The position numbers were made by a program, and so were the translations under genes. The notes under the pieces are model-generated. The model saw only the letters and a program-made list of their open reading frames with translations. It made no database searches and was not told the origin of the DNA. From assembly GCA_033762915.1 (NCBI GenBank), contig JANRLD010000094.1:16469-48468 (forward strand): a stretch of 32,000 nucleotides of DNA, read 5' to 3'. Source of the stretch: Meiothermus sp. GTDB taxonomy: Bacteria; Deinococcota; Deinococci; Deinococcales; Thermaceae. Numbering within the stretch: position 1 is the stretch's first letter; every line of letters begins with the position of its first letter. Shown here one piece after another: positions 11,229 through 27,051 of the stretch.

Positions 11229-11407
11229 GTGCGAACTATCGCCCGCCAGCTCCCGCAGGGAATTGCGCCTCGGGTAGCCGCTCTGCGGCTATGGCGCACG
11301 CCACTCCGCCCTGGGTAGCCGCTCTGCGGCTATGGCGCACGCCACTCCGCCCCAGCACGTATTTGCCGCTTCCGCCGATTCCGCACTTCTACCCTGGCGC
11401 AACTTAC
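11229..11407. repeat. Intergenic repeat element, copy A
   Basis: Shares long near-identical blocks with 18866-19053 and 24249-24320, including CGCCCGCCAGCTCCCGCAGGGAATTGCGCCTCGGGTAGCCGC and TTTGCCGCTTCCGC..ACCCTGGCGCAACTTAC. All three copies are in the same orientation. Confidence 0.75.
11272..11353. repeat. 41-bp tandem duplication inside repeat copy A (GGGTAGCCGCTCTGCGGCTATGGCGCACGCCACTCCGCCCT x2)
   Basis: The two adjacent units are identical apart from the last base. Each unit contains a TAGCCGC-tct-GCGGCTA hairpin. Confidence 0.85.
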
Positions 11408-11475: not shown

Positions 11476-12560
11476 CTATGTCAATACTTCGCACAGAGCG
11501 CGGTAGACCGAACGACAGACTTGGCGTTTGGTGGCCCGCGTGGCCTGTCGGGCGGCCATCCCGGCCTGTCGCTTGCCGTCGCGGTAGGTTCGGGTGTCGG
11601 GGTCACGCTTGAGGCGATTCCAGGTGATGAGTTCAATGGTCCGGTTGAGGCGTCGGTTGCCTCCTGGATTAACCTTGACTCGCTGATTGTTGGCCGAGGA
11701 GTGATCCTTGGGGGCTTGGGGGCCACGCCGGCATAACTGGCGAAGGCGGCTTCGCTGCGGAAGCGCCGCATGTCCTGCGCCTCCCCGATCAACACAGCGG
11801 CACTCACCAGGCCGATCCCCGTAGCGTTCAGGAGGGCTCGGTAGGGTTCTAGCAGTTTCTCCAGCACCTTTTCAAGTTCCCGAATCTGCTGCTGTAAGGT
11901 GGTGTACACCGCCTCCAGGCTGGTCCTGACCTGCGGCAAGGCGTAGGGCTGGGCCGCCAGCGCCTCGATCTGCTGTCCGATGGCGACCCGTTGAGCCACT
12001 AAGCTCTCCCGACTACGCTCCAGGCTCTGGATTTGTAGGGCAGAGGTCGGTAGCCGCAGGGGGAAACGCTTCTCCCACACACTGGCTTCCAGCAGAACCG
12101 TCGCGGCCTGTCGAGCATCTTCAAAGTCGTTCTTGACCTTCTGACGACGCTTGCGCATATGGGCAATCTCAGTGGCTGGGATGTCGTAGACCTGCTGCCC
12201 CTGAGACAACAGGTACCAACTCAGGCCCAGCCCGTAGCCTCTGGCGTTCTCCACTGCAAAGACCAACCCTGACCCCGACTCTGACTCCGACTCCAAATCT
12301 GACTCCGACCCCGACTCCGACTCCGACTCCAACTCTGACCCTGTTCCCAATCCGCAGCCGTGTTCCTTCAATCCCGACAGCAGTTGAGCATAGCCCGCCT
12401 GGGTATTGGGTAACTCGCCCTGAGTTTTGACCCCTCCGCCGAGTCCGCCGAGTCCTGTCCCGAGCAGCACGTAGCTAAAGCTCCGCTTGTGGGCATCCAC
12501 CCCTACCACCCATTTGACCTCAGACCCTGCACTCAGCGGTAGTTGAGCTAGACTATTCAT
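11476..12560 (-). pseudogene. IS110-family transposase (DEDD N-terminal domain plus transposase_20 C-terminal domain), frameshifted
   Basis: N-terminus VGVDAHKRSF. C-terminal domain TGIGLVSAAVLIGEAQDMRRFRSEAAFASYAGVAP. After AGVAPK the track frame turns into nonsense. Shifting frame gives DHSSANNQRVKVNPGGNRRLNRTIELITWNRLKRDPDTRTYRDGKRQAGMAARQATRATKRQVCRSVYRALCEVLT and a stop at 11476-11478, the expected IS110 C-terminus. The cause is an 8-bp tandem duplication at 11707-11722. Confidence 0.85.
12271..12340 (-). repeat. Hexanucleotide (GACTCC-like) microsatellite inside the transposase gene, encoding SELESESESGSESDLESESESGSG
   Basis: The plus strand reads gaccccgactctgactccgactccaaatctgactccgaccccgactccgactccgactccaactctgaccct. 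It forms a low-complexity insert between the DEDD-domain strand LLSGLKEHG and LVFAVENARG. Confidence 0.85.
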
Positions 12561-12746: not shown

Positions 12747-12863
12747 TCAGTTGCCGGTAACCGCCCAGGTGACGGCGGCCTGGAACAGCCAGCCCCCCAC
12801 TAGGCGGTGTCAACCAGGGTGGAGCTGGTGTCCTGGAACATGAAGGCCACGCGGAGGGCGCGG
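12747..12863 (-). pseudogene. Relic of the 3' end of a subtilase paralog (C-terminal domain type of the 20540-22408 gene)
   Basis: DNA homology to 20540-20650 (gatcagttgccggtaaccgcccaggtgacggcggcc vs gatcagttcccgctgaccgcccaggtgacagcggcc). The translation ARALRVAFMFQDTSSTLVDTA(stop) then, after a frameshift, GWLFQAAVTWAVTGN(stop) matches APARRVAFFMRDNQASKLTPVGWNLFEAAVTWAVSGN(stop). Confidence 0.75.
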
Positions 12864-12874
12864 GCAAAACAGTA

Positions 12875-12896
12875 CCCCTCGAGCAAGCTCGAGGGG
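12875..12896 (-). terminator. Terminator hairpin CCCCTCGAG-caag-CTCGAGGGG after subtilase 1
   Basis: 9-bp GC-rich stem with a 4-nt loop, 19 nt beyond the stop at 12915. The same sequence recurs after subtilases 2 and 3. Confidence 0.6.
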
Positions 12897-12914
12897 CACC
12901 TGCCCTACCGGGTT

Positions 12915-14687
12915 TTACGGGTTGCGCACCAGGCGCATATCGTCTACCAGAACCGTGCTGGTGCCGTGGCCGCGCCACAGCACCACGTTGAGATGGGTGG
13001 TGGTGGGGCCGGTGGTGATGGTGAGCGAGCGGCTGGTATAGGCGGTGGTGTCGCTCTTAACCGAGGTGGTGGTCCGCTCGAGCAACATCGAGGCGGCATC
13101 GGACTGGTCGAGGCTGAGGGAGGCGGCGTCGGCAAGGTTGGCGAAGCGAAACCAGGCCGTGACGGTGTAGCTGGTGTTGGGGCTGACCGGAATCCGGTGG
13201 CTCCAGGCCCCGCCCATCCCGACCGAGAGGGCTCCAGAGCCCGAGCGCTGCCCGCTGGTAGCGCGGGAGGCACTCTCGAAGCCCCACGACGCAGTGGTCT
13301 CGAGGCCGCCGTTGGGGAGCAGGTTGGTGGCCGAGGCTACCGCAGCGGGCTCGGCAAAGCCGGGCAGCGATCGCAGCAGGTTGGCGCTGTCCACCATCCC
13401 CAGGCCCAAGCTCAGCCACGCGCCGCCTCGAGCTTGGCTGGTGCGGTTCCACATGTCGTTGGTGAAGGCCGAGTCCACGGCCAGCTGCCACAAGTTGGCC
13501 CGGGCGGTGACGTTGGTGGTCTCGCCGAAGGCCAGGGCCAGGGCGCCCGAGACCAGTGGGGCGGCGAAGGAGGTGCCGGTGAACTGGGCGGTACGGCTGC
13601 CGGGGAATGCGCTCACCACCCCCTCCCCCACCCCGCCCAGCACGAAGTTGTTGCCGTAGGCCGAGAACAGCGACAGCTCGGAGCGGCGGTTGAAGCTGCC
13701 CACGCTGAAAAGGAAGGGGTGCACCTGCTCCCACCAGGCGTAGCGGGCGGGGTAGGTGAGGGCGTTCTCCTGGCCGTTGTTGCCCGCGCTGGCCACCACG
13801 TAGACCCCCCTGGCCTTGGCCGCCGAGAGGGCGGTCAGGAGGGCGTCGCTGGGGTCGGTGGCGCCGAGCGAGACGTTGATAACCCGGGCCCCGCTGTTGA
13901 GGGCGTGGTTGACCCCGGCGATCACGCGGTCCAGGGTGCCTACGCCGTTGGGGCCGAGGACCCGGATGGGCAGGATGGTGGCCCTGGGCGCCACCTGGAG
14001 GATCAGCCCGGCCACCCCGGTACCGTGCCCGAAGGCGTTGGGAGTGCCCGAGTTGACCTCCTGGGGATTGTTGTCGCCGTCGACAAAGTCGCGCCACTCG
14101 GCGCTGGGGGCTAGGCGGCCCGCGAACATGGGGTGGGCGGTGTCGAGGCCAGTGTCGACAACCGCGACCTTGACCCCCGCCCCGAAGTTCCTGGCCAGGG
14201 CGTGGGCCTGCCGCAGTTGCATCATGGTCCAGACGGCGTTGTTCTCGGCCGGGGGCTGGGGAGGAGTGGTGCCGCCACTCCAAGCGTTCCAGCCACCGCT
14301 CCAGGCGTTCCACCCACTGCTCCAGGCGTTCCAGCCGCCACTCCAGGCGTTCCAGCCGCCGCTCCACCCGTTCCAACCCTGGGCGGTGGCCATCGGCACG
14401 TTGAGCGCGGAGTTGGCCTCGAGGGTGGTGTTTTGCATGGAGATGCCGCGGACTTGCAGCTGGGCCACCGCCTCGCCGGTCATCCTGAGGATGGCCTGGC
14501 CGTCTAGCCAGGCGATCACCTCGCCGCCATAGCGCTGGGTTACTGCTTCTTGGGTGTCGGCTGGCTCGAGCCGGACCGTCAGCAGGTAGTCGCTGCCGCC
14601 CGGCGAGCTGGCCGTGGGGGCGCTCCCGCAGGCCGCCAGGAGCGCGACCAGCACGACCGCCACGCCATGTTTAAGTTTGAAAGTCAT
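12915..14687 (-). CDS. Lipoprotein S8 subtilase 1: I9-like propeptide, 5x GWN(A/G)WS(G/S) repeats, catalytic domain, CBM4_9-like C-terminal domain
   Basis: Lipobox LLAAC|GS. Triad motifs VAVVDTGLD, HGTGVAG, GTSFAAPLVSG. AGGAGG RBS 8 nt upstream of the ATG. The C-terminal roughly 140 aa (LPNGGLETTASWGFES...SYTVTAWFRF...VLVDDMRLV) looks like a CBM4_9/galactose-binding-like module. Confidence 0.9.
   Translation of the reverse strand: MTFKLKHGVAVVLVALLAACGSAPTASSPGGSDYLLTVRLEPADTQEAVTQRYGGEVIAWLDGQAILRMTGEAVAQLQVRGISMQNTTLEANSALNVPMATAQGWNGWSGGWNAWSGGWNAWSSGWNAWSGGWNAWSGGTTPPQPPAENNAVWTMMQLRQAHALARNFGAGVKVAVVDTGLDTAHPMFAGRLAPSAEWRDFVDGDNNPQEVNSGTPNAFGHGTGVAGLILQVAPRATILPIRVLGPNGVGTLDRVIAGVNHALNSGARVINVSLGATDPSDALLTALSAAKARGVYVVASAGNNGQENALTYPARYAWWEQVHPFLFSVGSFNRRSELSLFSAYGNNFVLGGVGEGVVSAFPGSRTAQFTGTSFAAPLVSGALALAFGETTNVTARANLWQLAVDSAFTNDMWNRTSQARGGAWLSLGLGMVDSANLLRSLPGFAEPAAVASATNLLPNGGLETTASWGFESASRATSGQRSGSGALSVGMGGAWSHRIPVSPNTSYTVTAWFRFANLADAASLSLDQSDAASMLLERTTTSVKSDTTAYTSRSLTITTGPTTTHLNVVLWRGHGTSTVLVDDMRLVRNP
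14274..14378 (-). repeat. 5 tandem 21-nt repeats encoding GWNGWSG-GWNAWSG-GWNAWSS-GWNAWSG-GWNAWSG
   Basis: Direct reading of the translation (aa 104-138 of subtilase 1). The periodic ccaggcgttccagcc units are visible in the DNA. Confidence 0.95.
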
Positions 14688-14756
14688 AGATCTGCCTCCT
14701 CAAGACCTTTTGCCTGGTGAGCTTACACAGGCCGACCAACATGGGTTGAGCTACTT

Positions 14757-14788
14757 AACCGTTACAAACAAGGCGTGCGTTACAGCGG
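14757..14788 (-). promoter_or_regulatory. Conserved bipartite upstream motif of subtilase 1 (gene sense CCGCTGTAACGC-N11-GTAACGGTT)
   Basis: The same two boxes with an identical 11-nt spacer length occur upstream of all five paralogs, 58-74 nt from each ATG. An AAC ... CGG spacing of about 17 nt resembles ECF-sigma promoters. Confidence 0.6.
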
Positions 14789-14905
14789 GATTCAACCCAT
14801 GGCCTGCGAACACCTCGGTGGAATCCACTCCCCGCCGTGTTTTCGGGGTGCGGTGTCGCGGCCAAACAATCTGCCAACCGCTGTAGGGATAGGGGCGCAG
14901 GAAAA

Positions 14906-14927
14906 CCCCTCGAGCAAGCTCGAGGGG
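14906..14927 (-). terminator. Terminator hairpin CCCCTCGAG-caag-CTCGAGGGG after subtilase 2
   Basis: Identical hairpin to 12875-12896, 14 nt beyond the stop at 14941. Confidence 0.6.
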
Positions 14928-14940
14928 CCTCCTCTGGGGC

Positions 14941-16731
14941 TCAGTTGCGCACCAGGCGGACATCATCGATCAGGATAGCCCCTGACCCACCGGCCCGCTG
15001 GAAGTAGAGGGTGAGCGAGCTGGTGCTGGGGCCGGTGGTGAGGGTGACCGAGCGGCTGGAGTAGCTGGTGGTGAAGGGGTTGACGGTGGTCTCGGTCTTG
15101 CCCAGGAGGGTGTTGCTCGAGCTGCGCTCCTCGAGGCCGAAGAGGGCCGCGTCGCCGGCGGCGGTGGAGGGGAAGCGCAGCCAGGCCGTGACGGTATAAC
15201 TGGTGTTGGGGCTGACCGCGACCGTGGTGCTGGCGATCCGCCCCGCCCCCAGCGACCCCGCCGCCTTGCCCGAGCGCTGGCCCGAGGTGGTGCGGGCGGC
15301 CCCGCCGCTGTAGGTCCAGCCGCCGCTGGTGCTCTCGAAGCCGGGGTTGGCCGAGGCCAGGTTGGTGGCGGTGGAGGTGGGCTCGACAAAGGTGGGCAGC
15401 GAGCGCAGCAGGTTGGCCGCGTCCACCATGCCGTTGCCCGAGCCGAAGTAGGTGGTACCGGCGGGCAGACGGCCGGAGGCGATGCTGCGGTTGAGGCTGT
15501 CGTTGGTGAAGAGGGTGCGGAGCAGGCGGTTCATGAGGTCGGCCCGAACCGTTGCGTCGGTGGTCTCGCTTAGGGTTAGCGCCAGTACCCCCGAAACCAG
15601 CGGGGTGGCGAAGGAGGTGCCAGTGTACTGGGCGATCTGGCCGCCGGGGTAGGCGCTGACCACCCCCTCGCCCACCGCCCCGACCATAAAGGTCGAGCCG
15701 TAGGCCGAGAACGGCGAGAGCTGCGAGCCGCGGCTGAAGCTGCCCACCCCCATCACATAGGGGTAAGCGCCTTCGGTGAGGCTGAAGATGGCCGGGAAGA
15801 GGATGCCCTCCTGCTGGCCATTGTTGCCCACCGCCGAGGGCACGTAAACCCCGTTCTGAACCGCGGCGCCCAGCGCGGCCACCAGGGCGTCGCTCCAGCC
15901 GCTGGCCCCCAGCGAGAGGTTGATGACCTTGGCCCCCCTGGCGATGGCGTGGTTGATGGCGGCGATCACATTGTCCAGGCTGCCCGAGCCGTTGGGGCTG
16001 AGCACCCGGATGGGCAGGATGGTGGCCTTGGGGGCTACTTGCAAGATGATCCCCGCCACACCCGTACCGTGCCCAAAGGCACTGGGGGTGGTGCCGGCGT
16101 TAACCTCCTGGGGGGTGGTGTCCCCGTCAACGTAGTCCTTCCACTCGGTGCTGGGGGCCAGCCGCCCAACGAACATCGGGTGGTTGAGGTCGATCCCGGT
16201 GTCGATCACCGCAACCTTGATCCCCGAACCGTAGTTCTTGGCCAGGGCGTGGGCCTGGCGCAGTTGCATCATGGTCCAAATGGTGTTGTTCTCGGCAGGC
16301 AGCGCAGGCACTGTGCCGCCGCTGCTCCAGGCATTCCAGCCGCTGCTCCAGGCATTCCACCCACTGCTCCAGGCGTTCCAACCGCTGCTCCAGGCATTCC
16401 AGCCGCTGGCCCCCGTGCCCAGCGCGCTGGCCATGGGGGTGCTGAGGACGGAGTTGGTCTCGAGGGTGGTGTTCTGCATCGAGACCCCACGGGCCTGCAT
16501 CTGCGCCACCGCCTCCCCCGACATCTTGAGCACGGCCCTCTCATCGGTCCACAGCAGCAGTTCGCCGCCGTAGCGCTGGGTCACTGCTTCTTGGGTGTCG
16601 CCGGCCTCGAGCCGGACGGTGAGCAGGTGGCCGCCGGCGCCCGGCGAGCCGGCGGTGGGCGCGCTCCCGCAGGCCGCCAGGAGCGCGACGAGGGAAAGGG
16701 CCAGGGCTTGTTTGAGACGTTGAAAGGGCAT
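14941..16731 (-). CDS. Lipoprotein S8 subtilase 2: I9-like propeptide, 4x GWNAWSS, catalytic domain, CBM4_9-like C-terminal domain
   Basis: Start chosen at MPFQRLKQALALSLVALLAAC|GS (ATG 16731, AGGAGG 6 nt upstream). The track start at 16800 would run into the promoter motif. Triad motifs VAVIDTGID, HGTGVAG, GTSFATPLVSG. Confidence 0.9.
   Translation of the reverse strand: MPFQRLKQALALSLVALLAACGSAPTAGSPGAGGHLLTVRLEAGDTQEAVTQRYGGELLLWTDERAVLKMSGEAVAQMQARGVSMQNTTLETNSVLSTPMASALGTGASGWNAWSSGWNAWSSGWNAWSSGWNAWSSGGTVPALPAENNTIWTMMQLRQAHALAKNYGSGIKVAVIDTGIDLNHPMFVGRLAPSTEWKDYVDGDTTPQEVNAGTTPSAFGHGTGVAGIILQVAPKATILPIRVLSPNGSGSLDNVIAAINHAIARGAKVINLSLGASGWSDALVAALGAAVQNGVYVPSAVGNNGQQEGILFPAIFSLTEGAYPYVMGVGSFSRGSQLSPFSAYGSTFMVGAVGEGVVSAYPGGQIAQYTGTSFATPLVSGVLALTLSETTDATVRADLMNRLLRTLFTNDSLNRSIASGRLPAGTTYFGSGNGMVDAANLLRSLPTFVEPTSTATNLASANPGFESTSGGWTYSGGAARTTSGQRSGKAAGSLGAGRIASTTVAVSPNTSYTVTAWLRFPSTAAGDAALFGLEERSSSNTLLGKTETTVNPFTTSYSSRSVTLTTGPSTSSLTLYFQRAGGSGAILIDDVRLVRN
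16321..16404 (-). repeat. 4 tandem 21-nt repeats encoding GWNAWSS x4
   Basis: aa 110-137 of subtilase 2. Confidence 0.95.
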
Positions 16732-16800
16732 TGAAAGCCTCCTTGATAATTGCGCTATGGCCCAGGATAAAAGGCGGGTGTGAATGTGTTTGAGACACAC

Positions 16801-16828
16801 AACCGTTACCCCGCCACTTGGCGTTATG
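16801..16828 (-). promoter_or_regulatory. Conserved bipartite upstream motif of subtilase 2 (CCATAACGC-N11-GTAACGGTT)
   Basis: Same boxes and spacing as the other paralogs, 70 nt upstream of the ATG at 16731. Confidence 0.55.
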
Positions 16829-16839
16829 GATCAAAGAAA

Positions 16840-16865
16840 GGCCCCTCGAGCAAGCTCGAGGGGCC
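16840..16865 (-). terminator. Terminator hairpin GGCCCCTCGAG-caag-CTCGAGGGGCC after subtilase 3
   Basis: 11-bp stem with a 4-nt loop, 15 nt beyond the stop at 16880. Confidence 0.6.
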
Positions 16866-16879
16866 CGGTGTAAATCCAC

Positions 16880-18598
16880 TCAGTTCATCAACTGCAGCCG
16901 CCAGCGCTGGTTGTTGGCCCCGTTGCAGCCCCACTGCACTGCGCTGGCATCGACGGCCAGGGAGCCCCCGCTGATGCCGACGCATTTGTTGGAGTGGCGG
17001 GCCACCAGCTCGTACACACTGCCCACCGGGCGCAGCGTCCACTGCTGGTTGTTAGCGCCGACCCAGCCCCACTGCTGCACCCTACCGCCATCGGCGGTAG
17101 TGGAGGCGGATACCTCCAACACCTTAGCGCTGTTGTTGTTGACCAAGCTGTAGAAGCCGCCCGCAAAGTCCAGCCGCCAGCGCTGGCTGCTGTCGGAGTT
17201 GCAGGTTTCCTGCCGCACCACAGCGCCGTCGGATCTGGACGAGCTGGCCACGTCGAGGCAGAGGTTGCTGTTGTTGTTGACGATGCGGTACTGCGGCTGG
17301 GTCCAGCCGGGCAGCACCCGGATCAGCCGCTCCACGTCCAGCAGCCGTGCGCCCGTGATGCCGGGGTTGGGGGTGTTGGTGTTCATGCTGCCCCACAAGG
17401 CCTCGGCCACGGTATTGAAAGTAAGGCTGGGGGCTTCAGACATGGCCAGCGCAGCCGCACCACTGAACATCGGGGCGGCGAAGGAGGTGCCGGTCACGCG
17501 GGCGGTCTGGCTGCCGGGGTAGGCGGCAGCGATGGACTCCCCGGGGGCAATGCCGTAAATGTCGGTGGCACCGTTGTTGGTGGGGTCGAGCAGGGCGGTG
17601 AAGCTCGAGATCACGTTGTCCGAGCGCACGCTGCCGATGCCCACGGTTTTCATGTAGGTCTGGTCGTACCAGCTCAGATTGGCGGGGAACAGGGCGTTGG
17701 TGTTGTTGCCGGTGTTGCCGGTAGAGGCGTAGATGTACACGCCCCGGCTGTTGGCCCAGGCGGCGGTATCGAAGAGCGCATCCGACCAGGAGGTGCTGCC
17801 CAGCGAGACGTTGATGACCCTGGCCCCCATGTTCACCGCATGGGTGATGCCCGTGAGCACCACATCGAGGCTCCCCGCGCCGTCCTGGTTCAGCACCCGA
17901 ATGGGGAGGATGGTGGCCTTGGGAGCGACCTGCAGGATGATGCTGGCCGCAGCCGTACCGTGCCCGAAGCCCCTGTTGGAGGAAGTCCCCACCTCCTGGG
18001 GGTTGTTGTCGTTGCTCACGAAGTCGCGCCACTCGCTGCTGGGGGCCAGCCGACCGCTGAACATAGGGTGCGCGGTATCGATGCCGGTGTCCAGCACCGC
18101 CACCTTGACCCCCGCTCCGAAGCGGCGGCTGATGGCGTGGGCCTCGCGCAGCCGGATCTGGTTCCAGGCGGTGTTATTCTCCGACGGCGGCGCACCCCCC
18201 ACCCCACTGCTCCAGGCGTTCCAGCCCCCGCTCCACGCGTTCCAGCCGCTGCTCCAGGCGTTCCAGCCGCCCGACCATGCGTTCCAGCCCGCCGCCGTGA
18301 CCGGGGCCGCCACTGGGGTGTTGGCCGCCAGGGTGGTGTTCTGCATCGAGATGCCCCGGGCCTGCAGCTGCGCCACGGCTTCGCTGCTCAACTTGAGGAT
18401 GGCCTTATCGTCCAACCAGGCCACCATCTCGCCGCCGTACCTCTGAACGATGGACTCCTGGGTGTCACCTTCGCTGAGTTTGATGGTGAGCAGTTGGTCG
18501 CTGCCGCCTGGCGAGGTCGCCTGAAGCGGTGCACCGCAGGCCGCCAGCAGGGCGACCAGCGATACCGCCAGGGTCAGTTTGAGCGTTTGAGCGATCAT
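16880..18598 (-). CDS. Lipoprotein S8 subtilase 3: I9-like propeptide, 4x GWNAWS(G/S), catalytic domain, ricin-type beta-trefoil (CBM13-like) C-terminus
   Basis: Lipobox LLAAC|GA. Triad motifs VAVLDTGID, HGTAAAS, GTSFAAPMFSG. The C-terminal roughly 135 aa has three QxW-type repeats (SSQRWRL, NNQQWTL, NNQRWRL), characteristic of ricin B lectin domains. Confidence 0.9.
   Translation of the reverse strand: MIAQTLKLTLAVSLVALLAACGAPLQATSPGGSDQLLTIKLSEGDTQESIVQRYGGEMVAWLDDKAILKLSSEAVAQLQARGISMQNTTLAANTPVAAPVTAAGWNAWSGGWNAWSSGWNAWSGGWNAWSSGVGGAPPSENNTAWNQIRLREAHAISRRFGAGVKVAVLDTGIDTAHPMFSGRLAPSSEWRDFVSNDNNPQEVGTSSNRGFGHGTAAASIILQVAPKATILPIRVLNQDGAGSLDVVLTGITHAVNMGARVINVSLGSTSWSDALFDTAAWANSRGVYIYASTGNTGNNTNALFPANLSWYDQTYMKTVGIGSVRSDNVISSFTALLDPTNNGATDIYGIAPGESIAAAYPGSQTARVTGTSFAAPMFSGAAALAMSEAPSLTFNTVAEALWGSMNTNTPNPGITGARLLDVERLIRVLPGWTQPQYRIVNNNSNLCLDVASSSRSDGAVVRQETCNSDSSQRWRLDFAGGFYSLVNNNSAKVLEVSASTTADGGRVQQWGWVGANNQQWTLRPVGSVYELVARHSNKCVGISGGSLAVDASAVQWGCNGANNQRWRLQLMN
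18206..18289 (-). repeat. 4 tandem 21-nt repeats encoding GWNAWSG-GWNAWSS-GWNAWSG-GWNAWSS
   Basis: aa 104-131 of subtilase 3. Confidence 0.95.
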
Positions 18599-18671
18599 GA
18601 TCAGGGGCCTCCTAAGACTTTGCTTCGTCTGTTCAAATTACGTGACAGGAACAGCATGGACTCACCAACAC

Positions 18672-18703
18672 AACCGTTACTCGAGTCCCCCGCGTTACAG
18701 CAG
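18672..18703 (-). promoter_or_regulatory. Conserved bipartite upstream motif of subtilase 3 (CTGCTGTAACGC-N11-GTAACGGTT)
   Basis: Same boxes and spacing as the other paralogs, 74 nt upstream of the ATG at 18598. Confidence 0.6.
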
Positions 18704-18865
18704 TTTGCGGGCTGATTACCGCCGCACCACACAGCGAAAACGCGCTGTGAAGAACAGATTTCAGACCCCCAGGTTTTTGCAGAGTTGGGAGCGAAATCCG
18801 CTAAGGCCACGATGTGACCCCAAGCCCGGGCAGGGCCGCACCCGACCGGGCGCAGGAGACTTATG

Positions 18866-19053
18866 AGTCTCCATAGTTGCAAAGCGACACACCAGCTCCT
18901 TCAAGAAATTGCGCCTCGGGTAGCCGCTCCGCGGCTATGGCGCACGCCACTCCGCCCTGGGTAGCCGCCCTGCGGCTATGGCGTACGCCACTATGTCCCG
19001 GCACGTGTTTGCCGCTTCCGCTGATACTGCGCTTCTACCCTGGCGCAACTTAC
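18866..19053. repeat. Intergenic repeat element, copy B (also with two 41-bp units, 18918-18958 and 18959-18999)
   Basis: Collinear with copy A from AATTGCGCCTCGGGTAGCCGC to ACCCTGGCGCAACTTAC. Its left end, TCTCCATAGTTG, matches copy C. Confidence 0.75.
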
Positions 19054-20324
19054 CAGGGCGCAGCGTTGAGGAAGTTGGCGACCTGTAGTCGGCTGGAGCC
19101 GAGCTTGCCGAAGAACGGCAGGTTCTTGAGGGTGATGGAGATGCCGTTGTTGGTCAGGGTGCCCTTCAAGCTGGATAGGTTCCCCCGGCCCTGCCCAAGG
19201 GCCAGCGCCAGCGAGCCCGAGACCAGCGGGGCCGCCATGGATGTCCCACTCCAGCTGGCAACCCGGCTGCCGGGCGCGGTGGTGGCGATGCGCTCGCCGG
19301 GCGCGGTCATGTCCAGGCTGGAGCCGTAGTTGGCAAAGCCGGACTTGACGTCGCTGGCGTCCACGCTGCTCACGCTGACCAGGTAGCTCGATGTCCCGAC
19401 TAAGTCGAGGGTCTTGGACTGGCGGGCCGGGTAGTCGAGGCCGTCGGCGTTGGCGTTGCCGGCCGCCGCTACTACGTAAATCTTCCTCGAGGTGGCGCTG
19501 TTCAAGACCGCGGTGAGGGCCGCAGAGGGGCTGTCAGCGCCCAGGGAGAGGTTGATGACCTGGGCGCCTGCGCCGATGGCGGTGTTGATGGCCGCGATGA
19601 CGTTAGACAGGCTGCCCGAGCCGTCGGGGCCCAGCACCCGGTAGGCCATAATCATGGCGCTGGGGGCCACCTGGGCCACGATCCCCGCCACCGCCGTCCC
19701 ATGCCCGAAGCCGCGGTCGCCCATCATCCCAACCTCCTGGGGAATGCCGTCGTTGTCCACGAAGTCGTAGCGGTCGATCAGACGCGAGGCCAGGGCCGGG
19801 TGATTGAGGTCGACGCCGCTGTCGATCACTGCCACCTTAACGTTTTGGCCCAGGTTGGAGGCCAGGGAGTGGGCCTGGCTAAGGCCGATCTGGGTCCAGA
19901 GGGCGTTGTTCTCAGTGCTGAAATTGGTGATGGAGCCGGTGCCGCTGCTCCAGGCATTCCACCCGCTGCTCCAGGCGTTCCAGCCGCTGCTCCAGGCGTT
20001 CCACCCCACCGCATTAACGGTGGACGGGGTTCTCACGCGGGTGTCGCCCTCGAGCGTAGTTCCCTGCATCGAGACCCCCCGGGACTGCAGCTGGGCCACC
20101 GCCTCGCCCGTCATCCTGAGGATGGCTTGGCCGTCCAGCCAGGCGATCACCTCGCCGCCATAGCGCTGGGCCACAGTCTCCTGGGTGTCGGCCGGCTCGA
20201 GCTGGACCGTGAGCAAGTAGCCGCTGCCGCCCGGCGAGGTTGCCTGGGTTGGAGCGCTGCCGCAGGCCGCCAGCACGGCGACCAGCGAGCCCACCAGGGC
20301 GAGTTTGAGCGTTTGAGCGATCAT
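19050..20324 (-). CDS. Lipoprotein S8 subtilase 4: I9-like propeptide, 3x GWNAWSS, catalytic domain, no C-terminal module
   Basis: Start at MIAQTLKL (ATG 20324, AGGAGG upstream), parallel to subtilase 3. Lipobox VLAAC|GS. Triad motifs VAVIDSGVD, HGTAVAG, GTSMAAPLVSG. It ends at ...QVANFLNAAPW, where paralogs continue into a C-terminal domain. Confidence 0.85.
   Translation of the reverse strand: MIAQTLKLALVGSLVAVLAACGSAPTQATSPGGSGYLLTVQLEPADTQETVAQRYGGEVIAWLDGQAILRMTGEAVAQLQSRGVSMQGTTLEGDTRVRTPSTVNAVGWNAWSSGWNAWSSGWNAWSSGTGSITNFSTENNALWTQIGLSQAHSLASNLGQNVKVAVIDSGVDLNHPALASRLIDRYDFVDNDGIPQEVGMMGDRGFGHGTAVAGIVAQVAPSAMIMAYRVLGPDGSGSLSNVIAAINTAIGAGAQVINLSLGADSPSAALTAVLNSATSRKIYVVAAAGNANADGLDYPARQSKTLDLVGTSSYLVSVSSVDASDVKSGFANYGSSLDMTAPGERIATTAPGSRVASWSGTSMAAPLVSGSLALALGQGRGNLSSLKGTLTNNGISITLKNLPFFGKLGSSRLQVANFLNAAPW
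19944..20006 (-). repeat. 3 tandem 21-nt repeats encoding GWNAWSS x3
   Basis: aa 107-127 of subtilase 4. Confidence 0.95.
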
Positions 20325-20397
20325 GAGCAAGGGCCTCCTTAGACTTTGCTTCGTCTGTTCAAATTACGTGGCACGAACGGCGTAGACTCATGAATAA

Positions 20398-20425
20398 AAC
20401 CGTTACTCGAGCCCCCCGCGTTAAT
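20398..20425 (-). promoter_or_regulatory. Conserved bipartite upstream motif of subtilase 4 (GCATTAACGC-N11-GTAACGGTT)
   Basis: Same boxes and spacing as the other paralogs, 74 nt upstream of the ATG at 20324. Confidence 0.55.
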
Positions 20426-20435
20426 GCTAAAACGT

Positions 20436-20463
20436 GGCCCCTCGAGTCCTGGCTCGAGGGGCC
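20436..20463 (-). terminator. Hairpin GGCCCCTCGAG-tcctgg-CTCGAGGGGCC downstream of subtilase 5
   Basis: 11-bp stem with a 6-nt loop, with the same stem sequence family as the other inter-paralog hairpins. Confidence 0.5.
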
Positions 20464-20492
20464 ATCTGGGAACACCAAAGCGGTTTCCATGA

Positions 20493-20527
20493 ATACTCGG
20501 CACGGCAACCAACGCCGTGCCGAGTAT
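20493..20527 (-). terminator. Hairpin ATACTCGGCACGGC-aaccaac-GCCGTGCCGAGTAT immediately after subtilase 5
   Basis: Perfect 14-bp stem with a 7-nt loop, 13 nt beyond the stop at 20540. Confidence 0.6.
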
Positions 20528-20539
20528 CGGGAAACGTGA

Positions 20540-22408
20540 TCAGTTCCCGCTGACCGCCCAGGTGACAGCGGCCTCGAAGAGGTTCCAGCCGACCGGGGTG
20601 AGCTTGCTGGCCTGGTTGTCACGCATGAAGAAGGCCACGCGCCGGGCCGGGGCGGTGCGCCCCACCATCTGGGCACCGGTGTCGTAGGCGAAGAGGTTGG
20701 CCTGGGCGGCGTTGTTGGCCATCCGCCCCACCACCACCGCGCCGCTGCCGGGTACGCCCCAGGAGAACCACTCCCCGGCGGTGTAGACGGCGGGGTTGGA
20801 GGGGGCGCTGAGGCCCGCCGCCAGCGGGTGGGTGCCGTTCACCAGGCTGACCTGAGTCAGCTTGTCGGTGGTGCCGGACTGGCCAGCGGCGGTCAGACCC
20901 ATTTCGTCGAAGACGTCGGCCCGCCACACCACCACCGGAACCGCGACCGCGGCGAACTTGGTGTTCACGTCGCCGCCGCTGGCAGTGGCCGAGATTAGCA
21001 CCAGGTCGCGCCCGGTCGCATCGGCTGTGCGGGCCTTTTTGTCTTCCCTGGGAGTCACCGAGTAGCCGAGGGACTGGAGGCGGCTGATCAGCAGGTCGTC
21101 GTTGGCGTTGGGGCTGGCTCCGCCGTGGACGAAGAGCGCGTTCTCGAGCTGGATGCCGGGCAGTCTCTGCGCGAAGCTGACCGTGTTAATCAGCCCAAAC
21201 CGGCTGTTGGTGGTGCCCGCCCCGAAGGTGGAGGTGGACAGCCAGGTCGAGAGGCTGGACCAGCTGAGGCTGGAGGTCTCGCTCATGGCCAAAGCCAGGA
21301 TGCCACTGACCAGCGGGGCCGCGAAGGAGGTGCCGCGCACGGTGGCGACCCGGCTTTCCGGATAGGCGGTGACGATGTTCTCGCCGGGGGCCATGAACTC
21401 CAGCGCCGTGCCCGAGTTAGAGAAGCTCGAGCGGTTGCCGTTGCCGTCCACGCTGCCCACACTAATCAGGCGGTCGGAGTTTGTGGCGTTGGCGGCCGGG
21501 AAGTCGAGGCTACCGCCCCTGTTTCCCGCCGCCGCTACAACGTAGACGCCCAGGCCGTTGACGTAGCTGATCTGGGTACGCAAGGCGGACACGTTCACGT
21601 CGGTGCCCAGCGAGAGGTTGATGATCTGCGCGCCCTGCTGGCGGGCCCAGTCGATGGCCGCCACCACGTTGTCTACGTTGCCCGAGCCGTCTGAACCCAG
21701 CACCCGGATGGGCAGGATGGTGGCGCGGGGGGCGACCTGCAGGATCAGCCCCGCCACCGCCGTACCGTGCCCATAACCCTTGTCGCCCGGTACATCTTGG
21801 GGGTTGCTGTCGCCGTCTACGTAGTCCTTCCACTGGCTGCTGGGAGCCAGCCGGCCGGTAAACATCGGGTGGGCGAGATCCAGGCCGGTGTCGATCACCG
21901 CCACCTTGATCCCACTACCATAGTCGCGGGCTAGCGCGTGGGCTTGGGGCAGCTTGATCTGCAAGAAGGCGGGGCGGTTGCTGGGGGGTATCACCGGGAT
22001 GCTGCTGCTGCCGCTGGCCCAGGCGTTCCAGCCGCTGCCCCAGGCATTCCAGCCGCTGCCCCAGGCGTTCCACCCGCTGCCCCAAGCGTTCCAGCCGCTC
22101 ATGGTGGCCGGGGTGCCCACGTCGGCGTTGGCCTCGAGGGTGGTGTTCTGCATCGAGACCCCCCGGGCCTGCAGCTGGGCCACCGCCTCCTCGCCCATCC
22201 TGAGGATGGCTTGGTCGTCCAGCCACGCGATCACCTCGCCGCCGTAGCGCTGGGCCACGGTCTCCCGGGTGTCGGCCGGCTCGAGCCGGACTGTGAGCAG
22301 ATAGCCGCTGCCCCCCGGCGAGGTTGCCTGGGGCGGAGTGCCCCCACAGGCTGCCACAACCGCAATGAGCGAAAGCGCAAGAGCCTGTTTGATGTACCGA
22401 AGTCTCAT
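20540..22408 (-). CDS. Lipoprotein S8 subtilase 5: I9-like propeptide, 4x GWNAW(G/A)S, catalytic domain, uncharacterised roughly 200-aa C-terminal domain
   Basis: Lipobox VVAAC|GG. Triad motifs VAVIDTGLD, HGTAVAG, GTSFAAPLVSG. I cannot assign the C-terminal domain (NALFVHGGASPNANDDLLISRLQSLGY ... VGWNLFEAAVTWAVSGN) to a known family. It has an alternating alpha/beta-like pattern. Confidence 0.9.
   Translation of the reverse strand: MRLRYIKQALALSLIAVVAACGGTPPQATSPGGSGYLLTVRLEPADTRETVAQRYGGEVIAWLDDQAILRMGEEAVAQLQARGVSMQNTTLEANADVGTPATMSGWNAWGSGWNAWGSGWNAWGSGWNAWASGSSSIPVIPPSNRPAFLQIKLPQAHALARDYGSGIKVAVIDTGLDLAHPMFTGRLAPSSQWKDYVDGDSNPQDVPGDKGYGHGTAVAGLILQVAPRATILPIRVLGSDGSGNVDNVVAAIDWARQQGAQIINLSLGTDVNVSALRTQISYVNGLGVYVVAAAGNRGGSLDFPAANATNSDRLISVGSVDGNGNRSSFSNSGTALEFMAPGENIVTAYPESRVATVRGTSFAAPLVSGILALAMSETSSLSWSSLSTWLSTSTFGAGTTNSRFGLINTVSFAQRLPGIQLENALFVHGGASPNANDDLLISRLQSLGYSVTPREDKKARTADATGRDLVLISATASGGDVNTKFAAVAVPVVVWRADVFDEMGLTAAGQSGTTDKLTQVSLVNGTHPLAAGLSAPSNPAVYTAGEWFSWGVPGSGAVVVGRMANNAAQANLFAYDTGAQMVGRTAPARRVAFFMRDNQASKLTPVGWNLFEAAVTWAVSGN
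22013..22096 (-). repeat. 4 tandem 21-nt repeats encoding GWNAWGS x3 plus GWNAWAS
   Basis: aa 105-132 of subtilase 5. Confidence 0.95.
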
Positions 22409-22465: not shown

Positions 22466-22497
22466 AACCGTAACGCAACCGTCTTGCGTTACAGCGG
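22466..22497 (-). promoter_or_regulatory. Conserved bipartite upstream motif of subtilase 5 (CCGCTGTAACGC-N11-GTTACGGTT)
   Basis: Same boxes and spacing as the other paralogs, 58 nt upstream of the ATG at 22408. Confidence 0.6.
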
Positions 22498-23772: not shown

Positions 23773-24243
23773 TCAAACCTGCTTGGGTATTCCGCCCGTC
23801 AGGTTCATCCACCAGCGAACGCAGCGGTGTCCGACGTCGGCGGTGCGGCAGTACATCATCGGGCAGCCGCCGGGAATTACCGTGAGGCCCTTGCCGCGCC
23901 CGTAGGCCACGGCCTTATCGCAGACGCTGCTGCCCATTCCCCTGTGCATCCAGACCCGGCCGATGCCCAGCTCCGCACACTGCTCGACGATCTTTTCGGT
24001 CACTTCGGGCCGGGTGACGATCACCGCCCCGTCCACCTTGATTGGGATGGATTTGAGGTCGGGGTAGGCGGGGTCGCCCTCGAGGGTCGTGGCCTTGGGG
24101 TTAACCGCGAAGACCCTGTAGCCCTCGGCGCGCAGCTTGCGGTAGATGGCGTTGGCGGCGTCGTCCTTGGTGCTCGAGACCCCCACCACCGCAATGTTTT
24201 TCTGGCTCAGGAACTCTTGGGTTGCTTGCTGCATGGTCGGCAT
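23773..24243 (-). CDS. CoA-binding domain protein (YccU/YneT-like)
   Basis: KNIAVVGVSSTKDDAANAIYRKLRAEGYRVFAVNPK ... DLKSIP.KVDGAVIVTRPE is the classic CoA-binding Rossmann pattern. Start chosen at MPTMQQ (ATG 24243, GGAG 6 nt upstream). The track start at 24372 reads through repeat copy C. Confidence 0.8.
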   Translation of the reverse strand: MPTMQQATQEFLSQKNIAVVGVSSTKDDAANAIYRKLRAEGYRVFAVNPKATTLEGDPAYPDLKSIPIKVDGAVIVTRPEVTEKIVEQCAELGIGRVWMHRGMGSSVCDKAVAYGRGKGLTVIPGGCPMMYCRTADVGHRCVRWWMNLTGGIPKQV

Positions 24244-24248
24244 AGGTG

Positions 24249-24320
24249 TCTCCATAGTTGGAATGCGAAATTTCGCCCGCCAGCTCCCGCAGGGAATCGC
24301 GCCCCGGGTAGCCGCTCCGC
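24249..24320. repeat. Intergenic repeat element, partial copy C
   Basis: TCTCCATAGTTGGAATGCGAAATTTCGCCCGCCAGCTCCCGCAGGGAATCGCGCCCCGGGTAGCCGCTCCGCC matches the left parts of copies A and B, then diverges. Confidence 0.7.
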
Positions 24321-25308: not shown

Positions 25309-26442
25309 TCACCAGCGCTCGAGGCCCGCCAGCCCGCCCAGCCGCTCCACCAGGCGGGTCTCGGCCTGGCCGCGCACAAACTCGAGGCGGGTGGCGTAGC
25401 GCTGGCACAGCTCGGGCAGCACCCGGCGCAGCTCCACATCCTGGATGCGCCCCGCGCCGTGGGCGATCGCGCCCTCGGTGCTACCGCCCACCCAGTCGTC
25501 TGGCGCGCGGTAGGCTTGGCCTTGCAGGTTCCAGGGGGCCACCACTAGCCGCAGGCGGCCCTGCTGGAGCAGCTCGAGGGTCTGATCCAAGCCCCCCACC
25601 CCACGCTCGATCAGCCCGTCCACCAGCTCGCTTTCGCGCTGGCGCTCGAGCGGCTCGAGGGCGGCCTCGACCCGCCTCAACACCTCGTCGGCGTGGCTGG
25701 AGGGGGTGGTGAGGGCGGGCAGCACCGTCCAGACCTTTTCGCGCAGGCGGCGCGGCAGCAAGGTCTCGAGGGTCTGCACCTCAGAGGGCTGGCCCATCAG
25801 CACCAGCCGCTGGATCTCGCGCCCGTGCAGCAGGCCCTCGAGCTGGCCCACCATCTGCTTATAAAAGCGGTAGGTCCAGGCCTCGAGGCGGCGCTCGAAG
25901 TGATCGGAGTCGGCCCCCCCGCCCAGGGTCATGCCCTGGCTGTAGCGCCGCCCCAGGCCGTCCTGGCGCAGCTGCCGCCACTCGCCGGGGTCGACGGGCC
26001 GGAAGGCGCCGGACAGTTCCTCGATTTCACCCAGGAACACCTCGAACATCCGCCACTTCTCGCTGTCCAGGAAGACCACCCCCACCCGCGGGTATTCTTC
26101 CAACAGGTAAAGCAGCGGGGTCAGGTAGGGCTCGCCCCAGCGGGCCTCCACGCCCTGCACCAGGGGCAGCTCGGCCTGCAAATCGTAGATCTCCATCAGC
26201 CCCTGGCCCGCAAAGACGATCCGGCTGCGGCCCTGCGGGGGGGCGGCCTCGAGGGCGCTCAGCAGGCTGCGGGCGAGGGGCCGGGGCACCTCGAGGGCCT
26301 TGAGCGCCTCCTTGACCCGCAGCGCATAGGCTTTGCCTTGGTTGGCGGGCCGGGCGGCGGTGTCCAGGTAGAGTGAGAAGACGGGAGAGGCCCGAGGGAC
26401 CACAAACTCGCGGACATGACGGGTCGCGGCTTGGGTGAGCAT
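25309..26442 (-). CDS. Bacterial eRF1/Pelota-like (baeRF/VLRF1-type) protein
   Basis: The three-domain layout and central segment LGRRYSQGMTLGGGADSDHFERRLEAWTYRFYKQMV resemble the GG(Q)-loop region plus following helix of aeRF1/Pelota-type proteins. The C-terminal domain has the usual ...LVDGLIERGVGGLDQTLELLQQGRL..L pattern. Start probably at MLTQAATR (26442). Confidence 0.55.
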   Translation of the reverse strand: MLTQAATRHVREFVVPRASPVFSLYLDTAARPANQGKAYALRVKEALKALEVPRPLARSLLSALEAAPPQGRSRIVFAGQGLMEIYDLQAELPLVQGVEARWGEPYLTPLLYLLEEYPRVGVVFLDSEKWRMFEVFLGEIEELSGAFRPVDPGEWRQLRQDGLGRRYSQGMTLGGGADSDHFERRLEAWTYRFYKQMVGQLEGLLHGREIQRLVLMGQPSEVQTLETLLPRRLREKVWTVLPALTTPSSHADEVLRRVEAALEPLERQRESELVDGLIERGVGGLDQTLELLQQGRLRLVVAPWNLQGQAYRAPDDWVGGSTEGAIAHGAGRIQDVELRRVLPELCQRYATRLEFVRGQAETRLVERLGGLAGLERW

Positions 26443-26568
26443 ACACACCTCCAACCCCCATTGAACCCGCGAGGCGTTACCCCGGCATTACCAAGTTGCG
26501 CGACTGTGCAACTGCCCAACGGCAGGGGCGGCCAGCCCAGAGGCGATGGATTGTCGTAGACTCTCGGC

Positions 26569-27051
26569 ATGGACAAAGCCAAAGACCTGGGGCGCGTCGC
26601 CCTCCAGGAGCGCCGTCTGCGCTTCGCCAGCTTCGACCACGCCACGGCCTGGGCGATCGGCTCGAGGCTGCGCCAGCTGGCCCACGAGCGCGGCCTGAGC
26701 GTCGCCATCGAGGTCCGACTCCACCACCAGCCGCTGTTCTTCGCCGCCCTGCCCGGAACCACCGCCGACAACGCCGACTGGCTGCGGCGCAAGCACAACG
26801 CCGTGGTCCGCTTCGAGCGCAGCTCGTACGCGCTGGGGCTGGACATCGGGGAGGAGCGGCTCGAGCAGACCTGGGGCCTGGGCCGACGGGACTACGCCCT
26901 GCACGGCGGCTGCTTCCCGGTCTTCGTGGGCGAAACGTGCGTGGGGACGGTCGGGGTCTCGGGGCTGCCGCAGCGCGAGGATCACAAGCTGGTAGTGGAG
27001 GTGTTGGCCGAGCACCTGGGGGTGGGGCTGGAGGAGGTCGGTCTGGACTGA
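26569..27051 (+). CDS. UPF0303/heme-degrading (GlcG/HbpS-like, DUF336) domain protein
   Basis: 160 aa. F....A..LG..L...A......V.I.V......LF..ALPGTT.DN..W..RK.N.V.RF..SS, ending in GG.FP......VG...VSGLPQ.EDH..VV, is the UPF0303 pattern. Confidence 0.75.
   Translation: MDKAKDLGRVALQERRLRFASFDHATAWAIGSRLRQLAHERGLSVAIEVRLHHQPLFFAALPGTTADNADWLRRKHNAVVRFERSSYALGLDIGEERLEQTWGLGRRDYALHGGCFPVFVGETCVGTVGVSGLPQREDHKLVVEVLAEHLGVGLEEVGLD

Follow-up and report, generated by a model that had tools for sequence, protein, structure and literature searches.

A 32,000-nucleotide (nt) stretch of a Meiothermus sp. metagenome-assembled genome (MAG), referred to below as the window, carries five consecutive genes, p1 to p5, that encode precursors of subtilisin-type (S8A) serine proteases. 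We consider it likely that these genes form a head-to-tail array of separately transcribed, probably co-regulated members of a Deinococcota-wide family, whose precursors combine a lipid-anchored I9-type propeptide with an amplified linker like IS1, the junction insertion of the archaeal enzyme Tk-subtilisin. The encoded proteins are identical to five public proteins on one 80,624-bp contig of the Meiothermus sp. MAG, where they are annotated as "S8 family serine peptidase." An earlier note on this DNA had described five open reading frames (ORFs) on one strand, and all are present at those coordinates on the minus strand (Table 1), with a coding-type composition (GC content at third codon positions [GC3] of 0.88 to 0.90). 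Their products share a layout of lipobox, N-terminal domain (N-domain) of ~65 amino acids (aa), three to five GWNAWSG heptads, a catalytic domain with intact Asp, His, Ser, and Asn residues, and C-termini that differ. The p2 start codon, ATG at 16731, is preceded by AGGAGG and agrees with the public 596-aa protein P0111.

Catalytic domain and relationship to known subtilases

All five proteins match Pfam Peptidase_S8 (PF00082) with E values of 1e−36 to 1e−45 (2e−38 for p1) and scores of 125 to 154 bits, compared with a cut-off of 21.8. Residues D178, H221, and S373 and the oxyanion residue N303 (p1 numbering) are invariant across p1 to p5, and the catalytic Asp, His, and Ser are invariant in an alignment of 104 homologues, which comprises the five paralogs and 99 full-length homologues. 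The earlier note had assigned a complete D/H/S S8 domain to each gene, and the Pfam matches and invariant residues bear this out. Judged by sequence, p1 to p5 are S8A subtilisin-type protease precursors, for which proteolysis and autoprocessing are predicted.

Thermitase, BPN′ and subtilisin E, and Ak.1 protease are 33 to 36% identical to the array proteins in the catalytic domain and have the triad, the oxyanion Asn, the propeptide fold, and the docking mode in common with them. These classical S8A subtilisins lack the lipobox, the junction linker, and the C-terminal binding module, and their propeptides match Pfam Inhibitor_I9, whereas the N-domain of the Meiothermus array does not. The best NCBIfam match, the type VII secretion system mycosin model TIGR03921, scored 113 to 145 bits, far under its cut-off of 278.75. 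Mycosins align with the array proteins over ~250 residues of the S8 catalytic core, but there is no ESX context here, and the anchor is an N-terminal lipobox rather than the C-terminal transmembrane segment of mycosins. Fervidolysin, the keratinase of Fervidobacterium pennivorans, is also a thermophile subtilase with an N-terminal prodomain (PF22148) and extra C-terminal domains. Unlike the array proteins, it lacks a repeat linker and differs in its C-terminal domains, and the matches of the array family to PF22148 are weak and probably fall short of the threshold. No Pfam or NCBIfam model spans the first ~140 residues of p1 to p5. The residue that we take to be equivalent to the Ca ligand Asp41 of BPN′ is Met182 in p5; this ligand is apparently not conserved, and the Ca1 site is therefore doubtful.

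A lipobox precedes a predicted I9-type propeptide

The signal peptides of p1 to p5 consist of a positively charged n-region, a hydrophobic h-region, and a lipobox that reads LLAAC in p1 to p3, VLAAC in p4, and VVAAC in p5, all of which fit [LVI][ASTVI][GAS]C. The LAAC lipobox previously ascribed to every gene is thus found in p1 to p4, while p5 has VAAC. The lipobox Cys is invariant in the 104 homologues and is located before the propeptide. From this lipobox we infer that the precursors would be lipid modified on its Cys.

The structure of p5 was predicted by AlphaFold2 (AF2) with the 104-sequence alignment, giving a mean predicted local distance difference test score (pLDDT) of 90.3 and confident models of the S8 domain and the C-terminal domain. 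The N-domain (residues 36 to 98) was modeled at pLDDT >90 as a beta-alpha-beta-beta-alpha-beta fold (strand 36 to 41, helix 48 to 55, strands 58 to 62 and 66 to 71, helix 73 to 82, and strand 90 to 93). In a Foldseek search of the Protein Data Bank (PDB) with this model, the top match was 3whi, a pro-subtilisin E with inserted IS1 (404 columns; template modeling [TM] score of 0.80 on the target), followed by pro-Tk-subtilisin (2z2z and 2e1p; 441 to 446 columns), while mature subtilisins aligned over only ~280 columns. The best matches of p5 are therefore unautoprocessed precursors, aligned across both propeptide and catalytic domain, which means that the modeled N-domain docks where a subtilisin propeptide canonically does. 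At the level of fold, the predicted structure supports the assignment of the N-domain as a docked I9-type propeptide.

Tryptophan heptads as a probable amplification of an IS1-like junction segment

Tandem GWNAWS repeats had also been noted in each gene, and these were confirmed as 5, 4, 4, 3, and 4 heptads in p1 to p5, visible in every gene as a 21-nt periodic repeat. Across the 104 homologues the heptad consensus is G-[W>F>K>T>S>Y]-[N>S>T]-[A>S=T]-W-[G>A>S]-[G>S], with Trp at position 5 in 421 of 424 units. Copy number ranges from 0 to 9 with a mode of 4, and the last heptad ends a constant 38 residues ahead of the VAVIDTG motif; the heptads end 14 residues ahead of the invariant N144. Family units read GKNAWGGG, GWNAWSGG, or GFNSWAGG, and further members have up to ~15 units, with variants such as GMSAWSD, GRGAWSG, and GMSVWSG. 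In p5 the heptads (residues 105 to 135) are predicted to be disordered. A folded repeat domain was rejected, since pLDDT stayed below 50 even with the 104-sequence alignment. Units within the window genes differ at 53 synonymous and 15 nonsynonymous codon positions. Because the differences are mainly synonymous, the peptide sequence is selected and not merely a fresh product of slippage.

A profile scan of GTDB-wide contigs with the 104-sequence alignment recovered related junction units in the nearest S8 relatives. Deinococcus and Deinococcales proteins contain octads or heptads (GSLGLWAD five times, GSMAIWAG twice, or GFGAWAT five times), Acidobacteriota proteins contain two or three hexads of the form G(R/H)SW(A/S)(I/V) or GNTWSV, and two betaproteobacterial MAGs (L022 and L040) contain a single unit, GRSAWAVGG and KNVAWAIG. 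In every case the units lie directly after the EPN-type last strand of the propeptide and 14 to 18 residues before the aromatic residue of the mature N-terminus. Counted from the Trp of the last unit, this conserved aromatic is reached after 18 residues in the array (W/F148), after 15 in Tk-subtilisin, and after 14 where relatives carry one to three units.

Tk-subtilisin of Thermococcus kodakarensis is a close known counterpart of this arrangement, and its precursors are among the best structural matches. It has an I9-type propeptide docked on an S8A domain, and its Gly-rich, Trp-containing IS1 (GKPSWLGGGSTQP; 13 residues, with GKPSWLGGG) separates the scissile bond from the canonical N-terminus of the mature enzyme, 15 residues from Trp to the aromatic of PWG, compared with 14 to 18 in the family. 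IS1 is reported to let the mature N-terminus reach its native place before cleavage. In PDB chains the junction reads ...EFDHQAVLL/GKPSWLGGGSTQPAQTIPWG or, in a longer form, ...VEKVEFDHQAVLL/GKPSWLGGGSTQPAQTIPWGIERVKAP. GKPSW opens the mature chains 3a3p and 2zrq; shorter chains, which start at STQPAQ or QPAQT, leave the insertion out. Entry 3whi is the structure in which IS1 was grafted into pro-subtilisin E (Uehara et al., Biochemistry 2013;52:9080, as given in PMC8767453 and PMC8183432). The differences are also clear: Tk-subtilisin is archaeal, has a single 13-residue copy instead of the three to five heptads of the array (family mode of 4, >10 in some members), lacks a lipobox and a C-terminal module, and has extra Ca-binding insertions. 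Given the one to three copies in relatives from other phyla, we interpret the heptads as a junction linker of the IS1 type that grew by tandem amplification of such a segment and that, by analogy, lies C-terminal to the primary cleavage site.

Two other roles for the heptads were weighed. The heptads might be reiterated autoprocessing sites, with W-N-A-W at P4 to P1 followed by small residues, so that multiple cuts would ensure release and free W-heptapeptides would arise as a by-product or signal. The conservation pattern fits the known subsite preferences of subtilisins, with Trp at P1 in 421 of 424 units, Ala, Ser, or Thr at P2 in all, Gly, Ser, or Ala at P1′ and P2′, a variable P3, and a mostly aromatic P4; the heptad peptide is also under purifying selection, and the predicted disorder would make it accessible. 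On the other hand, P4 positions frequently hold Lys, Thr, Ser, Met, or Arg, in mixtures inside single proteins, the homologous motif of Tk-subtilisin lies downstream of a scissile bond that is cut five residues before the Trp, and no genes for peptide modification, export, or reception are near the array in the window. We regard serial autoprocessing as rather unlikely. Alternatively, the heptads could retain the mature enzyme at the envelope if the spaced Trp residues bound the membrane interface or a cell wall or S-layer glycan, leaving the enzymes surface associated. A near-invariant Trp every 7 residues exceeds what a spacer needs, the units lie on the mature side by analogy with Tk-subtilisin, and the lipobox would place the zymogen next to the membrane. 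Yet AF2 predicts no fold for the heptads, mature Tk-subtilisin chains that begin at STQPAQ or QPAQT are without IS1, the C-terminal carbohydrate-binding and lectin modules already provide targeting, and Deinococcus relatives have GSLGLWAD or GAFVTA in place of the unit. This retention device seems to us quite improbable.

In a broader form, amplification of the pro/mature junction may have created a functional cassette that is either cut at each unit to release W-heptapeptides as a signal or timer or kept as a Trp-rich envelope tail; we give this only a slim chance. Two further proposals fared poorly. Thermal adaptation as the reason for the repeats is weakened by their presence in low-GC (43 to 48%) Trueperaceae-type MAGs, which we take to be non-thermophilic. 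A reading of the W heptads as a ribosomally synthesized and post-translationally modified peptide or a darobactin-like product was rejected, as no radical-SAM enzyme, cyclase, transporter, or other gene for maturation is encoded in the window.

C-terminal modules

The C-terminal region of p2 matches CBM_4_9 (PF02018) with 33.2 bits, above the cut-off of 25.9. That of p1 scores 16.7 bits, under the same cut-off, and aligns with the p2 domain; PF02018 is present in many family members. In p3, RicinB_lectin_2 (PF14200; E value of 8e−33, 113.4 bits) and Ricin_B_lectin (PF00652; E value of 9e−19, 68.4 bits) both match above gathering scores. The 200-aa C-terminal domain of p5 has no Pfam match. Modeled separately (pLDDT of 90.9), it adopts a class I glutamine amidotransferase (GATase1)-like fold, with Foldseek matches to 2a9v and 1i1q at TM scores of 0.55 to 0.63. 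Amidotransferases of this class use a catalytic Cys-His-Glu triad, and the alignment of this domain contains no conserved Cys, so the model points to a GATase1-like module that is probably non-catalytic. The four C-terminal types (GATase1-like, CBM_4_9, ricin B, and none) reappear across the family.

Each gene has its own upstream element

The motif TAACGC-N(8-13)-GTWACGGTT has exactly five matches in the 32 kb, one 63 to 79 nt before each ATG, and none of 100 shuffles matched. When the five upstream regions were aligned by hand, anchored on ACGGTT, this hexamer was followed by a 6- to 7-nt spacer, a weak −35-like hexamer (TCAACC, TCAAAC, TGAGTC, TGAGTC, and TGAACC in p1 to p5), an 18-nt spacer, a TAnnnT −10 box (TAAGCT, TATCCT, TAATTT, TAATTT, and TATGCT), and a leader of ~30 nt that includes the ribosome-binding site (RBS). 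The RBS is of the AGGAGG type before each ATG, with GGGGG in p5. GC-rich, terminator-like hairpins follow p1, p2, p3, and p5, and none follows p4. An RBS and a motif copy for each gene and a hairpin terminator for four of the five had been reported in the earlier note, as had the conclusion that these are five parallel transcription units and not an operon; the elements and hairpins hold, and at the sequence level they support the conclusion well, so that the genes look like separate transcription units.

The element also precedes family genes in other Thermaceae-type genomes, exactly at loci L003 and L010 and as variants at L004 and L007, and at L003, L004, and L010 it stands 10 nt ahead of a good TTGAC −35 box. 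An operator placed directly before a −35 box as weak as those of the array genes suggests activator-dependent transcription, and the shared cis-element indicates that the five genes are probably co-regulated. A HisKA_3/GerE two-component pair adjoins a family gene at L003 (7484-9614) and L004 (11916-13780), and a TPR-GGDEF protein of ~580 aa adjoins family genes at L005 (14577-16322), L006 (7753-9504), and L089 (5610-7364). These neighbors are candidate regulators and serve as leads, not as evidence on regulation. The window itself has only a lone GerE-domain ORF, at 3507-4016, 9 kb away.

A proposed model of anchored zymogens and released enzymes

Together, the predicted structure, the junction motif, and the modules suggest the following pathway as the likely one. 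The precursor would be exported and lipid modified on the Cys that opens the pro-region. The I9-type propeptide, docked on the catalytic domain, would act as intramolecular chaperone and inhibitor. The disordered Gly/Trp linker (three to five heptads, G-W-N-A-W-S-G) that joins the propeptide tail to the canonical mature N-terminus would let the tail occupy the active site with the mature N-terminus already natively placed. Autoprocessing near the start of the linker would then free the catalytic domain and C-terminal targeting module from the lipid-anchored propeptide, and the linker would be trimmed afterward. The earlier note had pictured a co-regulated, diversifying battery of envelope-anchored proteases. 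The shared element and the diversification agree with this picture; since the predicted lipid anchor belongs to the propeptide, which is removable, "envelope-anchored" is probably true of the zymogen only. By the same logic, the mature enzymes are probably released, with only the zymogen or a non-covalent propeptide-enzyme complex tethered to the membrane.

Several observations count against this model. The ~60-aa segment is an I9 propeptide by fold (AF2 and Foldseek), as proposed in the earlier note, but not by Pfam sequence match: none of 35 N-domains matched Inhibitor_I9 (PF05922) at E values up to 10, a profile search of PDB sequences with the N-domain returned nothing relevant, and hhalign gave no match between the N-domain and the pro-subtilisin E propeptide. 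The only Pfam prodomain touched was Fervidolysin_NPro-like (6 of 35 N-domains, weakly, with a best E value of 0.008), and the propeptide assignment depends on the predicted structure. A nearly invariant Pro six residues past the EPN motif of the propeptide misfits the canonical cleavage register. The likeness to IS1 consists of a short Gly/Trp motif and its position and could be convergent; the catalytic domain is only ~23% identical to that of Tk-subtilisin, compared with 33 to 36% to thermitase and BPN′. A plain linker leaves the near-invariant Trp and the retention of 3 to 15 copies unexplained. On the transcriptional side, a sigma-70 consensus scan of the window found no promoter, and the terminator-like hairpins mostly lack T-runs.

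Finally, the array comes from a MAG. This source, and the repeats and mobile-element remnants in and beside the array, would suit an assembly artefact made of collapsed or chimeric paralogs, or the presence of pseudogenes among the copies. The five ORFs are intact, however, with catalytic residues and GC3 of 0.88 to 0.90, and each has its own promoter region. The copies differ by 10 to 50% in every 90-nt window, which makes collapse unlikely, and arrays of two or three genes occur in independent assemblies. We regard an artefact as very improbable.

TABLE 1 Coordinates of the protease genes and associated features within the 32-kb window
Feature	Position	Strand	Description	Basis
p1	12915..14687	−	Subtilase precursor, 590 aa; lipobox, propeptide, 5 heptads, S8, CBM_4_9-like C-domain	ORF; identical to P0112
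p2	14941..16731	−	Subtilase precursor, 596 aa; CBM_4_9 C-domain, aa 462-578 (14998-15348)	ORF; identical to P0111
p3	16880..18598	−	Subtilase precursor, 572 aa; ricin B lectin C-domain, aa 433-566 (16901-17302)	ORF; identical to P0113
p4	19050..20324	−	Subtilase precursor, 424 aa; without C-terminal module	ORF; identical to P0116, MDX2007576.1
p5	20540..22408	−	Subtilase precursor, 622 aa	ORF; identical to P0006, MDX2007577.1
p5 propeptide	22115..22303	−	aa 36-98	AF2, Foldseek
p5 S8 domain	21164..21988	−	aa 141-415	AF2, Foldseek
p5 GATase1-like domain	20543..21151	−	aa 420-622	AF2, Foldseek
p1 heptad array	14274..14378	−	5 units, GWN(A/G)WS(G/S)	
p2 heptad array	16321..16404	−	4 units, GWNAWSS	
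p3 heptad array	18206..18289	−	4 units	
p4 heptad array	19944..20006	−	3 units	
p5 heptad array	22013..22096	−	4 units, GWNAW(G/A)S; predicted disordered	
p1 upstream element	14757..14782	−	TAACGC-N11-GTAACGGTT; then weak −35, −10 TAAGCT	
p2 upstream element	16801..16826	−		Motif scan
p3 upstream element	18672..18697	−		Motif scan
p4 upstream element	20398..20423	−		Motif scan
p5 upstream element	22466..22491	−	Variant GTTACGGTT; dyad with first half-site	
Hairpin after p1	12874..12897	−	Terminator-like, GCCCCTCGAGC-TT-GCTCGAGGGG	
Hairpin after p2	14906..14930	−	Terminator-like	
Hairpin after p3	16839..16866	−	Terminator-like, then T-rich tail	
Two hairpins after p5	20436..20528	−	Terminator-like; 20493-20528 and 20436-20463	
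p5-type gene relic	12750..12794	−	45 nt; last 15 codons GW-LFQAAVTWAVTGN, stop, first bases of 3′ untranslated region (3′-UTR)	tblastn; frame and 3′-UTR match
IS110-family transposase ORF, degraded	11481..12560	−	Partial DEDD_Tnp_IS110 and Transposase_20 matches	
Dispersed repeat, ~160 nt	18892..19053		Abuts p4 stop codon, where other genes have hairpin terminator	

Old duplications and local gene conversion

The earlier note had suggested recent duplication or gene conversion combined with diversification. The near-identical DNA stretch on which it drew, 14459-14539 versus 20090-20170, is exactly 78 of 81 nt identical, and mosaic identity and conversion patches were found; recent duplication did not hold outside p1 and p2, whose duplication looks newer. 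Protein p5 is 67% identical to a protein of another Meiothermus MAG and 45 to 57% identical to its array neighbors. The best full-length relative of p4 is P0156, a 431-aa protein of the short type (55% identical over its whole length), and those of p3 are ricin-type proteins (44 to 46%). In contrast, p1 and p2 are mutual closest relatives (60%, versus 42 to 46% to outside relatives). Since p3, p4, and p5 are closer to proteins elsewhere than to their array mates, the array appears to combine four old architectural types with one newer duplication, and recent duplication of all five genes was rejected on the same grounds. Only the p1/p2 duplication looks lineage specific in these comparisons, and most of the duplications look old.

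The propeptides behave differently from the rest of the proteins. Among the five paralogs they are 55 to 78% identical, but their identity to relatives with matching architecture is only 23 to 48%; for the S8 domains of p3 and p4, it is these relatives that come closest. Synonymous divergence (dS) between paralogs is generally 0.5 to 0.8 and drops to 0.17 in the signal peptide of p3 and p4 and to 0.22 in the propeptide of p4 and p5; the upstream regions and signal-peptide codons of p3 and p4 are 88% identical over 164 nt. The low-dS patches and the paralog-like propeptides support gene conversion that acted locally, in patches, on the 5′ module. Over the C-terminal half of the S8 domain (window positions 13500-14100, 15540-16100, and equivalents), nonsynonymous divergence (dN) is close to dS between paralogs (0.43 to 0.81 versus 0.62 to 0.84), which fits relaxed or diversifying selection, with alignment uncertainty inflating dN. 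Thus, old duplications and the newer p1/p2 event would have built the array, with patchy conversion homogenizing the 5′ parts while the catalytic and C-terminal parts diversify. A protein from another MAG matches p5 at 96% identity in the propeptide but at only 77% in the S8 domain, and in this pair the propeptide appears more constrained than the enzyme that it is predicted to fold.

The array edges were also as the earlier note had described them, bordered by a decayed IS110 element and a repeat element, both of which were located. Between the p1 terminator and the IS110 remnant lies the relic of a sixth, p5-type gene, downstream of p1, which implies that the locus was remodeled and points to past recombination or deletion at the array edge. 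The ~160-nt repeat is MITE-like (miniature inverted-repeat transposable element), with copies that are 85 to 90% identical: 11246-11407 and 18892-19053 are 90% identical, and a partial copy lies at 24235-24320. The IS110 ORF covers only the first half of the Transposase_20 domain and contains an 18-nt tandem repeat (12266-12355) that encodes (Ser-Glu/Ser-Gly)n.

Distribution of the family and prior description

A profile of the propeptide, repeats, and linker was used to search 1.84 billion proteins, with matches clustered at 50% identity. The N-terminal module was found in 227 representatives at an E value of ≤1e−3 and in 156 at ≤1e−10, and every named member belongs to the Deinococcota (Meiothermus, Thermaceae, Trueperaceae, Deinococcaceae, and Deinococcales). 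Their source labels are "S8 family serine peptidase," "thermitase," or "hypothetical protein." A word-indexed search with the N-terminal 145 aa gave only five truncated gene calls, and relatives were obtained with full-length queries. Arrays of two genes were found at L005, L006, L011, and L088 and one of three genes at L089, so that five is the largest number encountered. Full-text literature searches with motif strings and for lipoprotein subtilases of Meiothermus or Deinococcus returned nothing relevant. The architecture is therefore common within one phylum yet undescribed. The statement in the earlier note that propeptide, Trp repeats, and S8 domain do not form a described family stands insofar as no Pfam or NCBIfam model or paper was found for it; it needs amending in that the architecture is not rare, is phylum-wide, and has a known counterpart in IS1.

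Subtilases are the textbook case of propeptide-assisted folding. The family departs from it in that the propeptide bears a predicted lipid anchor and in that the junction insertion of one archaeal enzyme is probably amplified to a conserved Trp/Gly repeat. If these inferences hold, relatives with one, two or three, and up to ~15 junction copies provide a natural series for studying how a linker tunes zymogen activation and release. Should the cassette reading be true, an anchored propeptide and a released enzyme would amount to an undescribed way to control where and when a secreted protease acts in the diderm envelope of the Deinococcota. Meiothermus has already been studied for heat-stable keratinases, and the family is a source of thermostable proteases with interchangeable targeting modules. 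The N-terminal module, which falls into ~200 clusters at 50% identity without being covered by Pfam or NCBIfam, merits definition as a family, and the array with its shared promoter element is a compact regulon for tracing the regulator.

Neighboring genes and small ORFs

Rfam and tRNA scans of the window gave no matches. An 893-aa ORF at 27170-29851 on the minus strand has a strong coding signal (GC3 of 0.91) and no Pfam match; it lies downstream of a baeRF_family10 (release-factor-like) gene at 25309-26454 and an HbpS-like gene at 26569-27051. The other genes that flank the array are unrelated housekeeping genes.

In other genomes, p5-type genes are followed by two kinds of small ORF. A conserved 123-aa ORF (...AILVMDSRKTSLAVR.QNFT..WSQLYKAGDFYLDLSLKPD...IEI at its end; no Pfam match on record) follows at L003 (11893-12264; a Meiothermus genome) and at L010 (a Deinococcota MAG), where it starts 15 nt past the stop. 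In low-GC Trueperaceae-type MAGs, a co-oriented ORF of 54 to 60 aa begins 10 to 13 nt past the stop codon of p5-type protease genes; no such small ORF follows the protease genes in the window. Sites are L005 (11883-12047 and 14214-14384), L008 (11 nt past the stop), L089 (9641-9823), L090 (4019-4201), and L006 (11901-12083). The encoded peptides end in ...LLLCWAY at L005 (twice) and L008 and in ...VLYLWMD at L006, and those at L089 and L090 are 60-aa gene calls. The small ORF could encode a cognate peptide, inhibitor, or substrate of the preceding protease.

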